64,000 bases of DNA from a phage. A model generated the notes under the pieces. The model worked only from the letters and a program-made list of their open reading frames with translations. It was not told the DNA's origin and ran no database searches. Location: the sequence record PZ452591.1, one strand, 5' to 3'. A program made the translations under genes and the position numbers. Of this stretch, positions 38,454 through 40,498 are shown piece by piece (position 1 is the first letter of the stretch; each line of letters opens with the position of its first letter).

Positions 38454-38741
38454 TTACCATTTATGATAATACATATTTACGATGCATTCAAGACCCAAAG
38501 GATTCTTGAAAATATCATATTCAAGAGGACCTTTTTCCGTTTCAATAAAGAAATCAAAATTTACTGTATTAAATTTACGGTCTTCCTTCACTAATTTAAC
38601 CTGAGAAAATGAACGGTCAATGTAAACCTTTTCAACTTCAAAACATGTTAAAATGCCATAATCATCAATCAAGGCTTTAGCTGCGTCTTGATCATATTTA
38701 TATCCATTTTCAATGGATGATACTTTAGCATAAAGAATCAT
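38454..38741 (-). CDS. hypothetical protein (IP-locus accessory ORF)
   Basis: 95 aa ORF; no recognisable motif. Confidence 0.45.
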   Translation of the reverse strand: MILYAKVSSIENGYKYDQDAAKALIDDYGILTCFEVEKVYIDRSFSQVKLVKEDRKFNTVNFDFFIETEKGPLEYDIFKNPLGLECIVNMYYHKW

Positions 38742-38743
38742 TA

Positions 38744-39154
38744 TCAGCCTCTATCAACGATAGTATGAGTATGGGCATTTACGATTTGCCACCAGTCGAA
38801 ACGATTGGAACCATAATCTGGTTTATTTTCATTCTCTTTAATGATATCACGCAGTTTATCTTCTGTTTCAGCATACGCAATTAAATCATCATATCCACCG
38901 CAAGGATAATAATTATCACCTGCGAATAAAAGAAAATTTACCTTAGATGGATTTACGTAATAATGGTCTTTAGGATATTTAGTTCCTCTCCAATCAGTTA
39001 CTTCAACATAACGGTAAGAAAATCCATTTTTACTTTCAATCCAACTCCACGCTTCAAAAGGAGTATTAAAAACTTTATCAGGTATTAAATTACCTTCAAA
39101 ATGAGAAGGATTTGCATAATCCCCGGCATAAACATAATATTCGTTAATACTCAT
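38744..39154 (-). CDS. hypothetical protein (IP-locus accessory ORF)
   Basis: 136 aa; Tyr/Trp-rich; weak internal repeat YAGDYANP / FAGDNYYP. Confidence 0.45.
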   Translation of the reverse strand: MSINEYYVYAGDYANPSHFEGNLIPDKVFNTPFEAWSWIESKNGFSYRYVEVTDWRGTKYPKDHYYVNPSKVNFLLFAGDNYYPCGGYDDLIAYAETEDKLRDIIKENENKPDYGSNRFDWWQIVNAHTHTIVDRG

Positions 39155-39340
39155 TTATTCACCTTTAGAAATTTTATCCATAACAATAGCAATTAAACCA
39201 ATTAAAAATGCTACTACAAGTGAAAACACATTTTCTGCTGTAGTCAATAATCCACATATAAATCCAACAAACATTGAAAAACTAAAAGCGGAAGCAGAAA
39301 TTGCAATAGCAACATTTCGAATTAATTCACAACGTTTCAT
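39155..39340 (-). CDS. small membrane protein (2 TM)
   Basis: 61 aa; hydrophobic AIAISASAFSFSMFVGFICGLL and LVVAFLIGLIAIV. Confidence 0.45.
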   Translation of the reverse strand: MKRCELIRNVAIAISASAFSFSMFVGFICGLLTTAENVFSLVVAFLIGLIAIVMDKISKGE

Positions 39341-39357
39341 TTTATTCTCCTCAGTAG

Positions 39358-39398
39358 TAGATAGGGTAATAGTATCACTACCCTATCTAAAAGTAAAC
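39358..39398 (-). promoter_or_regulatory. early promoter with embedded stem-loop (promoter/stem-loop cassette)
   Basis: GTTTAC (39393-39398); -10 TGATACTAT inside perfect inverted repeat TAGATAGGGTA/TACCCTATCTA (39358-39389). Confidence 0.6.
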
Positions 39399-39644
39399 TT
39401 ATTTTTTACGAAAAATTGATTTATTTTCTGCTGCCCATTTTTCAATAACTGCAGCAGGACCAGTAACAACAATTTTATCACCGTAATCTTCTGCGGCGAG
39501 TTGACCGAAATTATCTAATGCATCACGAAGAACTCCATGAGGCATTTCACCCATTTTATCTTTCTTGCCAGTGTAAATAAACTCAACTTTTACATCAGCA
39601 GTTTCAGCAATAAATTCTTGGTAAGTTTTCATTTTGATTTCCAT
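39399..39644 (-). CDS. internal protein with capsid-targeting sequence (IPI locus); likely start MKTYQEF at 39630-39632
   Basis: MKTYQEFIAE CTS after a 4-codon track extension; small basic protein. Confidence 0.55.
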   Translation of the reverse strand: MEIKMKTYQEFIAETADVKVEFIYTGKKDKMGEMPHGVLRDALDNFGQLAAEDYGDKIVVTGPAAVIEKWAAENKSIFRKK

Positions 39645-39660
39645 TTGGTTTTGTTTTGAT

Positions 39661-39720
39661 AGGGTAATAGTATCACAACTAAAACCCTATGTAAACAACT
39701 TTGTGAAATTATTTTAAATC
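39661..39720 (-). promoter_or_regulatory. early promoter/stem-loop cassette plus 31-bp repeat copy A
   Basis: GTTTAC (39691-39696), -10 TGATACTAT in inverted repeat; 31 bp at 39690-39720 identical to 40021-40051. Confidence 0.6.
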
Positions 39721-39966
39721 TTCTAATCGTTTCTTCATCTTAGAACCATTTTTAGCAATTTCTCCTGCATCGGAGCATAATGCTAAAAGTGCTTTAACTT
39801 TAGTTTGGTCTCCTTTAAAAGATGAAGGATCGACCGCAGCAGCAAGTTCTTTAATACGAGAGAAAAGACGCTCAGCTTCAGCTAAAGCCATTCCAAGCTT
39901 TACTTCCATACCGTGGGAAGATTCAGTGATAGTAGTTTTTGTAGCAAACTCTTTGAAAGTTTTCAT
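39709..39966 (-). CDS. CTS-bearing small protein (candidate injected internal protein)
   Basis: 85 aa; N-terminus MKTFKEFATK resembles the internal-protein CTS; its last codons (DLK-stop) and 3' flank are identical to those of 57B. Confidence 0.5.
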   Translation of the reverse strand: MKTFKEFATKTTITESSHGMEVKLGMALAEAERLFSRIKELAAAVDPSSFKGDQTKVKALLALCSDAGEIAKNGSKMKKRLEDLK

Positions 39967-39988
39967 TTTTATTTTCCTAATTAATTTT

Positions 39989-40051
39989 GATGAGGTAATA
40001 GTATCACTACCTCATCAGTATGTAAACAACTTTGTGAAATTATTTTAAATC
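39989..40051 (-). promoter_or_regulatory. early promoter/stem-loop cassette plus 31-bp repeat copy B
   Basis: GTTTAC (40022-40027), -10 TGATACTAT inside inverted repeat GATGAGGTA/TACCTCATC (39989-40016). Confidence 0.6.
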
Positions 40052-40498
40052 ATCTGCCCAATCGAGTTTAAGAGGCTCTTTGTATTCACGGTCAAGTACA
40101 ACCGGAATTTGTACATCACCGCTAAATGATAAGGGCCCAACATTATAAGACAATGTTATATGCGGTGTGTAATCATCAAAATCGTGTGTAGCACCTAGTG
40201 CCCGCGCATACATGTGTCGACAGCGCAGATATTCAGAATCTAGCACAAGTACAAGAGTCGATCCATCTTGTGTTTTCCACACTTCTAAATGTCCAGAAGA
40301 AGCTACTTCAAAACTTCCACTCGATGGAACATATGGAACATTTACTCTTGAATAACATATAGTCGAATGAATTTTTTCTCTAGGAACTGGATTAGGAACA
40401 CGTAAAGAGCGCTGGAGTTCTTCCAGCGCGTCAAGTGTTAATTCTGAAAACTTAGCTGCTACATAAAGACCCGTTGAAAAGTCTTTAAATTCCATCAT
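40040..40498 (-). CDS. 57B: gp57B, 2H-phosphoesterase (Acb1-type anti-CBASS cyclic-nucleotide nuclease)
   Basis: 152 aa; two H-x-[ST]-x motifs (HSTI, HITL); position upstream of 57A and gene 1 as in T4. Confidence 0.75.

Follow-up and report, generated by a model that had tools for sequence, protein, structure and literature searches.

Promoter/inverted-repeat modules as likely sites of cassette exchange in a T6/PST-type internal-protein gene array of a T-even phage

Repoila, Tetart, Bouet and Krisch (EMBO J 13:4181, 1994) reportedly described a sequence of about 70 bp, in which an inverted repeat overlaps a T4 early promoter and which is said to lie on both sides of most internal-protein (IP) open reading frames (ORFs); an 11-residue leader and a proposal that the genes are shuffled are said to have been part of the same report. 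The locus considered here, positions 38454-40498 of a 64,000-nt stretch of DNA from phage record PZ452591.1 (the whole stretch is called the window below), holds two IP genes, ip5 and ip6, and three copies of a promoter/inverted-repeat module of this kind. As far as the passages of two later papers go, the 1994 study saw sequences resembling promoter early stem-loop elements (PeSLs) at two variable IP loci and proposed IP shuffling (Arbiol 2010, PMC2839356; Comeau 2014, PMC4122927). In PeSLs the stem-loop overlaps or sits between the two promoter boxes (-35 and -10), and these elements have been proposed to mediate modular shuffling (PMC2839356, PMC4122927). Arbiol et al. treated the IP elements as analogues of PeSLs, not homologues, that are based on T4 early promoters and 'not sigma-70-like' (PMC2839356), and Comeau et al. 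sequenced phage PST and found five IP differences between PST and T4 (PMC4122927). The IP family is defined by a conserved capsid-targeting leader (PMC3012670, PMC12373910), by means of which the T-even internal proteins are packaged before being injected with the DNA, and a separate GmrSD type IV restriction enzyme is blocked by each of T4 Ip1, Ip2 and Ip3 (PMC12373910). None of this is recent: polymorphism, leader, flanking promoter/inverted repeat and proposed shuffling all go back to 1994 and were taken up again in 2010 and 2014.

The interval very probably represents, in T6/PST-type configuration, the hyperplastic locus called 'IP1' in T-even (Tequatrovirus) phages. Every gene in 37000-41500 lies on the minus strand, and the order of transcription is gene 1 (dNMP kinase), 57A (40495-40725), 57B, ip5, ip6, trna.4, trna.3, trna.2 and the tRNAs. 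An initial annotation, made from the sequence alone, had counted five ORFs between the tRNA cluster and 57B, and all five are present on the minus strand. The sequence features that it described are sound and the mechanism that it proposed is reasonable, but its premise about T4 was wrong: it placed only ipI in this interval and took the other ORFs for additions, when the T4 reference record lists trna.2, trna.3, trna.4, ipI and 57B here. Three of the five ORFs are therefore ordinary T4 genes. The genes of the interval are as follows.

40040-40498, minus: 57B (acb1), encoding an anti-CBASS nuclease; upstream conserved flank (Pfam PF23474 Acb1, E = 2.7e-60)
39709-39966, minus: ip5 (ipV in PST), 85-aa internal protein (phrog_3499 'internal head protein', E = 1.2e-49)
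39399-39632, minus: ip6 (ipVI in PST), 77-aa internal protein (phrog_8111 'internal virion protein', E = 1.5e-52)
39155-39340, minus: trna.4, 61-aa predicted membrane protein; downstream conserved flank of the cassette array (phrog_1692, E = 6e-35)
38744-39154, minus: trna.3, 136 aa, conserved T4 gene, not a cassette (phrog_1411, E = 2.5e-51; T4 annotation)
38454-38741, minus: trna.2, 95 aa, conserved T4 gene, not a cassette (phrog_2023, E = 8.8e-47; T4 annotation)

The real difference from T4 is the replacement of the single ipI by two genes, ip5 and ip6. The window aligns with T4 over 37845-39378 and 39932-41500 and differs only in 39379-39931, where 553 nt stand in place of 291 nt of T4. 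The stretches of T4 homology break off at 39378, where the invariant module core has its edge, and at 39932, where the ip5 leader-coding sequence ends. The locus as a whole is a common one: 38360-40500 shares 98.2% identity with T6 and 97.9% with Yersinia phage PST, 209 phage records each contain at least 80% of this stretch, and T6 and PST carry the same five ORFs (trna.2, trna.3, trna.4, ipVI and ipV in the PST annotation). For 39155-40498 the match to phage Pinarejo is complete (100% identity); the best match reaches at least 99% identity in 96 records, and at least 80% of this part is present in each of 236.

A repeat finder returned a single family in three 71-nt copies, which correspond to three modules.

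39985-40055, minus: module 3 (57B to ip5), with the end of 57B (D-L-K-stop), then an AT-rich stretch, a GTTTAC -35 at 40022-40027 and the -10 at 39998-40003
39988-39997/40008-40017: inverted repeat of module 3, perfect, 10 bp
39654-39724, minus: module 2 (ip5 to ip6), with the D-L-K-stop end of ip5, -35 at 39691-39696 and -10 at 39667-39672
39659-39665/39684-39690: stem of module 2, 7 bp with an 18-nt loop; geometry unlike that of modules 1 and 3
39356-39426, minus: module 1 (ip6 to trna.4), with the ip6 stop, -35 at 39393-39398 and -10 at 39369-39374
39358-39368/39379-39389: inverted repeat of module 1, perfect, 11 bp

All three share the exact 14-mer core GGTAATAGTATCAC; a search for it across the whole window with up to two mismatches, for which 0.48 chance matches are expected, turned up these three exact copies plus one weak match. 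On the gene strand, every module runs GTTTAC, then exactly 18 nt, then TACTAT, a TG being separated from the -10 by one base (TG-n-TACTAT), and the order of parts is always the stop of the upstream gene, an AT-rich stretch, the promoter, a ribosome-binding site (RBS) and the ATG of the next gene. The claim that one and the same module precedes three ORFs is thereby borne out, in copies of about 71 nt. The perfect inverted repeats that were described around the -10 are found in the two outer modules (11 and 10 bp) and not in the middle one with its 7-bp stem. The stems of 11, 7 and 10 bp (modules 1, 2 and 3) surround the -10 and are AT-rich (GATAGGGTA, GATGAGGTA). Folded as RNA, the modules reach -18.5 kcal/mol (z = -4.2), -18.1 kcal/mol (z = -5.0) and -17.4 kcal/mol (z = -4.6), respectively, and 0 of 200 shuffled sequences were as stable. 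Relative to T4, module 3 is identical to the 57B-to-ipI module over the 91 nt compared, and module 2 is 96.6% identical to the ipI-to-trna.4 module.

The modules hold a promoter sequence of the T4 early type, and promoter activity is predicted for them. A generic sigma-70 scan picks up two of the three, at no more than 9 of 12 consensus positions, and the T4 records NC_000866 and AF158101 have no promoter features annotated at the IP locus. The late-promoter consensus TATAAATA was not found in 39340-40100, and the sole copy upstream of the array lies inside gene 1 (41081-41088). An Rfam scan of 37000-40600 (E <= 1) returned the tRNAs and sub-threshold noise, with no match on the modules. The RBS differs with the type of module: trna.4 has GAGGAG (39341-39360), which contains GGAG, and ip5 has AGGAAAA (39967-39990), which does not. 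GGAG is the motif cut by T4 RegB in early mRNAs, and the mRNA lifetime of the cassette genes could differ from that of trna.4.

How these modules relate to the described elements can now be stated. They share with the IP elements of 1994 the locus (57B to trna.4), the gene family, the 11-residue leader and the kind of flanking repeat; as far as that work can be judged from the papers that cite it, nothing essential sets them apart, and this genome adds one more instance of the T6/PST arrangement. There is also a resemblance to the PeSLs of RB49/phi1, PST/T4 and nt-1/KVP40. Both have an intergenic stop in an AT-rich stretch, an early promoter, a stem-loop and the RBS of an accessory gene, and both sit in a hyperplastic region upstream of small accessory ORFs, where they mark the boundaries of insertions, deletions and replacements. 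In contrast to the PeSLs, whose -35 is the sigma-70 consensus TTGACA and whose stable stems are frequently polyG/polyC, the modules have the T4-early-type -35 GTTTAC and a -10 TACTAT, and their AT-rich stems are without polyG/polyC, a U-tract or a terminator-like signature. Effective termination and mini-circles excised by recombination between neighbouring elements belong to the description of the PeSLs. The earlier appeal to PeSL-mediated shuffling thus holds as to the shuffling and fails as to the element: the modules are T4-early-promoter analogues of PeSLs, not PeSLs proper.

A module of the same architecture also occurs outside the IP locus, at 36150-36200 on the minus strand. There GTTTAC comes immediately after the stop of an e.8-like ORF (36192-36467); next are a perfect 10-bp hairpin (ATAGGCTCAT/ATGAGCCTAT) around the -10 GATATTAT and the GAGGAG RBS of an e.7-like ORF (35801-36136). 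Among 17 matches to the GTTTAC-type promoter on the minus strand, a perfect stem of at least 7 bp is found only in this module and in the three IP modules.

The locus also has two sets of direct repeats. One is an exact repeat, already noticed in the initial annotation with a length of 31 nt and found here to extend to 33.

39688-39720 (copy A, ip5 3' end and -35) = 40019-40051 (copy B, 57B 3' end and -35): exact 33-nt direct repeat
39931-39974 (ip5), minus, paired with 39597-39640 (ip6): leader-coding repeat, comprising RBS, ATG and capsid-targeting leader, 77% identity

As had been claimed, the 33-nt repeat takes in the ends of two genes, 57B and the 85-aa ORF (ip5): in each, the last three codons and the stop (D-L-K-stop). 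The longest repeat in 300 simulated first-order Markov sequences had a mean of 11 nt and a maximum of 17 nt.

We compared the locus in the window and in 14 further genomes, parsing the genes between 57B and trna.4. The same module layout flanks the ip ORFs in the 14 others. The flank gene trna.4, so annotated in T4 and PST, was found in all 14 whole-genome loci compared; the RB15 entry is a 1448-nt fragment that stops just past the trna.4 start codon. Between these flanks the 15 genomes show ten gene arrangements, with zero to four ip genes.

No ip gene: bov9_1
ipI: T4, HY01, GRNsp7
ip5: PP01
ip5-ip7: T2
ip5-ip6: the window, T6, PST and, as a sixteenth genome, Pinarejo (from its 100% match)
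ipI-ip6: Ozark, teqdroes
ip9-ip7: SYGD1
ip5-ip9-ip7: RB32
ip5-ip9-ip7-ip8: RB15
ipI-like-ip7: LF82-33 (a Mosigvirus)

The record of RB32 itself carries the remarks 'flanked by 43 bp direct repeat' and 'replaces ipI'. When the 45 junction modules are lined up they prove to be mosaics, in which the 5' half tracks the upstream gene and the 3' half tracks the downstream gene. Following 57B or ip5, the 5' part ends in GATTTAAAATAATTTCACAAAGTTGTTTAC, of which the ATTTCACAAAGTTGTTTAC portion alone follows ipI; following ip6 it ends in AATAAGTTTACTTTTAGATRGGGTA, with near variants after ip7 and ip9. The 3' part is CCTCATCAAAATTAATTAGG when ip5, ipI or ip7 comes next and CCCTATCAACTACTGAGGAG when trna.4 or ip9 does. 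The halves join at the core GTGATACTATTA, which is invariant across the Tequatrovirus genomes compared. Chimeric hairpins with mismatched arms are seen in T2 (ip5 to ip7) and RB32 (ip9 to ip7), and in the ip6-to-trna.4 hairpin of PST the arms are of different types and pairing is kept through G-U. These mismatched-arm hairpins look like direct footprints of crossovers in the loop. The 57B-to-trna.4 junction of bov9_1 combines the end of 57B, the spacer type usual after ip5 or ipI, and a 3' half of the trna.4 type, and is exactly the product expected from recombination between the direct repeats flanking ip5 or ipI. Taken together, the ten arrays, the mosaic junctions and the deletion-type junction of bov9_1 agree with the original suggestion that promoter-containing repeats mediate cassette exchange, and they make the shuffling of cassettes by homologous recombination a well-supported reading for the ip5/ip6 part of the interval.

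A further junction was noted in the IMG/VR locus UViG_2706796299 (L030, around 2050-2081), where the -10 and 3' arm (GATACTATTACCTCATCAA) of a module of the ip9-to-ip7 type are tandemly duplicated, which suggests slippage or unequal exchange inside the module core.

The cargo of the array had been called uncharacterised, yet both genes have names and a family. The 85-aa protein is Ip5 in RB32, T2, PP01 and RB15 (1994 entry Z35082) and ipV in PST, where Ip6 is annotated as ipVI; both genes sit in the 57B-to-trna.4 IP locus, both products have the internal-protein leader, and both match PHROG internal head/virion families (E about 1e-50 to 1e-53). Ip5 starts MKTFKEFATKT (leader MKTFKEFATKTTITE) and Ip6 starts MKTYQEFIAET (leader MKTYQEFIAE), and the similarity of the two proteins is confined to these first 11 residues. 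The leader motif MKT[YF]xEF occurs in only four ORFs of the window: ip5, ip6 and two at a second IP locus. The ORF 39399-39644 exists as had been described, with a start that is more likely at 39632. The upstream ATG at 39644 would give 81 aa and the second ATG, at 39632, gives 77 aa (MKTYQEF...), and the latter is most likely the true start because T6 and PST annotate the 77-aa form and the PHROG profile aligns residues 5-81. The (I/L)-x-E motif is found as I-A-E at residues 8-10 of Ip6, as I-T-E at 13-15 of Ip5 and as I-T-E at 17-19 of T4 IPI, the last in agreement with the 76 residues of mature IPI (PMC3012670). By analogy, we infer that the prohead protease cleaves Ip5 after E15 and Ip6 after E10, and that both proteins are packaged in the head.

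Ip5 and Ip6 resemble T4 IPI, IPII and IPIII in the MKT[YF]xEF leader followed by (I/L)-x-E, in small size and in the position of the gene beside 57B. T4 ipI fills the exact slot of ip5, with which it shares the promoter module and the leader up to about codon 11. The mature parts of Ip5 and Ip6, however, are unrelated in sequence to the T4 proteins, and sequence searches of the PDB with Ip5 and Ip6 gave no match at E < 0.7. Pfam gave no above-threshold match for the five ORFs downstream of 57B; a hit of Ip6 to IF3_C (16.8 bits, cut-off 34.8) was treated as chance. AF2 single-sequence models show two long helices, a helical hairpin, for Ip5 (pLDDT 79) and a beta-alpha-beta-beta-alpha-beta arrangement, a generic ferredoxin-like fold, for Ip6 (pLDDT 69). 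Given that the known targets of T4 internal proteins are three different GmrSD enzymes, one inhibited by each protein, Ip5 and Ip6 most likely act by inhibiting other host defences. T4 gene 57B is Acb1 and adjoins ipI in an anti-defence island (PMC9117128). The present locus would likewise be an anti-defence island, with Acb1 beside injected proteins that in T4 specifically inhibit GmrSD restriction enzymes, and the promoter repeats would explain how T-even phages reshuffle their anti-defence arsenal and thereby change host range. On the targets of Ip5 and Ip6, as on the role of the hairpin, the window gives no special leverage beyond the many existing T6-type genomes.

The second IP locus (31089-32252, minus) encodes proteins of 193 and 157 aa that both start MKTYQEFI. 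After each of these genes stands a different repeated element, GGTAATGGGTAAATAYAGAAAYGGACAATTC, unlike the promoter module of the 57B locus; the copy after the 193-aa gene has a 10-bp hairpin (GGACAATTCA/TGAATTGTCC), and the other copy has diverged in its 3' arm.

Our explanation of the locus, which we hold with considerable confidence, is that it is a T6/PST-type IP array whose modules serve as exchange sites. Each gene of the array is preceded by a module of about 70 bp containing the last codons and stop of the prior gene, an AT-rich stretch, an early-type promoter, an inverted repeat and an RBS, with one arm of the repeat in the promoter spacer and the other just downstream of the -10. The N-terminal leader of 10-11 residues would target Ip5 and Ip6 to the prohead and then be cut off by the prohead protease past (I/L)-x-E, the mature protein being injected with the DNA as in the case of T4 IPI. 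Modules of one genome, or of relatives that infect the same cell, would undergo general homologous recombination with one another, and whole promoter-plus-gene cassettes would thereby be gained, lost or swapped, with every gene remaining expressed. Since the modules and the leader-coding sequence are the only homology among otherwise unrelated ip genes, recombination there would move whole cassettes. T4 recombines readily at short homologies, and the segB homing endonuclease causes co-conversion of the tRNA region in mixed infections (PMC2988022); such segB-driven co-conversion might also help neighbouring alleles to spread.

Other explanations of the array must be weighed against this one. 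The strongest version of the initial proposal, that extra, uncharacterised ORFs were acquired by cassette insertion and set this genome apart from T4-type phages, can point to the 553 nt that replace 291 nt of T4 and to two ip genes where T4 has one. It is scarcely credible given that trna.2-4 are T4's own genes, that the same ip5-ip6 array is common to T6, PST, Pinarejo and more than 200 other records, and that Ip5 already bears its name in the 1994 RB15 entry Z35082, with both genes appearing as ipV and ipVI in the PST record. Comparison with relatives, which the initial annotation had itself proposed as decisive, accordingly divides the interval: trna.2-4 are conserved content, and a shuffled cassette region is left for ip5 and ip6 only. 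The modules might instead be paralogous promoters and leaders descended from old tandem duplications and kept alike by functional constraint, with no role in recombination. Conservation of the leader is indeed needed for capsid targeting, and the core GTTTAC-N14-GTGATACTATTA also stands ahead of unrelated genes in other T4-like contigs. Constraint on a promoter fits poorly, however, with 33 identical nt that include sense codons of two unrelated proteins, with ten combinatorial arrays between identical flanks, and with a switch of type exactly at the core that yields chimeric hairpins and, in bov9_1, a precise deletion-product junction; we regard this reading as improbable. A dedicated recombinase that recognizes the hairpins and moves cassettes, as in an integron, is brought to mind by the superficially cassette-like layout, in which small promoter-proximal accessory genes of variable content alternate with imperfect inverted repeats between conserved flanks, and by a GIY-YIG homing endonuclease gene, segB (37086-37751), 1.4 kb away. 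Unlike integron cassettes, however, each cassette here has its own promoter, the junctions are simple homology mosaics explained by plain homology, and no integrase or recombinase gene was found in or beside the locus (ORF list, Pfam, PHROG); moreover, the target of SegB is the tRNA intergenic region, not the modules (PMC2988022). We therefore give an integron-like system almost no credence.

Exchange of self-expressing, anti-defence cassettes at the modules also has several observations to contend with. The latest mosaic boundary in this very genome, a switch between Pinarejo and T6 types, lies at the trna.3/trna.4 gene junction, outside the modules, and regional recombination is therefore not confined to them. 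No U-tract follows any module stem and a terminator scan of 38300-40600 found no site, so that the terminator role of the RB49/phi1 PeSLs is not simply transferable to these hairpins. The models of Ip5 and Ip6 gave no Foldseek match in the PDB at E <= 0.001 and hence no functional clue. No host target has been reported for either protein, in contrast to T4 Ip1, Ip2 and Ip3 with their specific GmrSD enzymes, and a literature search returned inositol-phosphate papers only. Finally, that the promoters fire and that recombination occurs at the modules are both suggested by comparison.

The hairpin of the modules is maintained, including by compensatory changes. Across 18 distinct modules 90.5% of cells are paired, vs 31-67% in controls with the 3' partners slid, and three stem pairs have changed on both sides, with 15-36 and 16-35 showing a GC/AU swap in 5 and 6 sequences. 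In other T4-like contigs with the same core, the 5' arm pairs in at least four registers against the same 3' arm, and several contigs have no hairpin; an IMG/VR scan for the promoter core yielded 22 sites, which show these other registers and are too few for statistics. Separately, in IMG/VR contigs 2706796116 and 2706796257, T4-like genomes of about 159 kb, GTTTAC-N14-GTGATACTATTA was noted ahead of many scattered unrelated genes (L017-L019, L022, L027-L029), mostly without a hairpin. In some relatives the core thus belongs to a general type of early promoter, the hairpin being an add-on. Departures from Watson-Crick pairing comprise four G-U and four A-C pair types, with no strand preference, and a G-U bias as a sign of a role in RNA was dropped as an argument on these counts.

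What the hairpin might do is less clear. One possibility, which we consider tentative, is that it acts in read-through transcripts as a PeSL-like attenuator or terminator, a 3'-end stabilizer or a processing site, insulating the cassettes from one another, so that expression of each would come chiefly from its own promoter. A stem-loop from an RB49/phi1 PeSL lowered lacZ expression to a degree similar to that of the strong rrnB T1 terminator (PMC2839356), the modules have stable folds (-17 to -18.5 kcal/mol, with z of about -4 to -5), compensatory changes and new registers of the 5' arm preserve the stem, and transcripts from the module's own promoter would be without the 5' arm. Arguing the other way are the missing U-tract and terminator-like site, the weaker, AT-rich stems that Arbiol et al. 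noted for the IP locus (PMC2839356), and the even G-U and A-C counts. Late supply of internal protein would, in addition, need read-through of the hairpins, because the only upstream late-promoter consensus lies in gene 1 (41081-41088). Alternatively, the hairpin may act at the level of DNA, as a cruciform or single-strand hairpin that is cut (for example as an endonuclease VII substrate) or that stalls replication, and so focus recombination on the core. Crossover points do fall at the hairpin loop and the core, and the A-C and G-U counts fit a double-stranded or strand-neutral constraint. However, the core is also the longest invariant stretch, so that crossovers would map there through homology alone, and stems of 7-11 bp with loops of 10-18 nt are poor at cruciform extrusion; we think this role unlikely. 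The probability that these two leave falls to a hairpin without an independent function. A bolder idea, which we hold to be doubtful, is that the hairpin is itself the selected element and goes beyond a by-product of homology, the promoter spacer repeatedly gaining complementarity to the conserved stretch past the -10; it might serve as an insulator or processing signal in read-through transcripts or as a focus of recombination in the DNA. The locus would then be a recombinase-free system of self-expressing cassettes, in which Ip5 and Ip6 inhibit type IV restriction or other first-response defences.

The mosaicism of the region extends downstream of the array. The window equals Pinarejo from about 39155 to 40900, and within trna.3 (38744-39155) it has 30-37 differences per 100 nt from that phage and is T6/T4-like instead. 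There are thus two diverged alleles of trna.3, which are exchanged at the boundary of the gene. Beyond trna.2 lie the tRNA genes.

37793-38356, minus: seven tRNA genes
37086-37751, minus: segB, GIY-YIG endonuclease gene, followed by tRNA-Arg

The cluster as a whole (37006-38356) is a T4-type set of eight: Arg, [segB], Met/Ile(CAU), Thr, Ser, Pro, Gly, Leu and Gln. That of T6 is without Ser and Pro and has Tyr, and that of Pinarejo has additional Asn and Tyr, so that the tRNA cluster, too, is polymorphic among otherwise near-identical phages.

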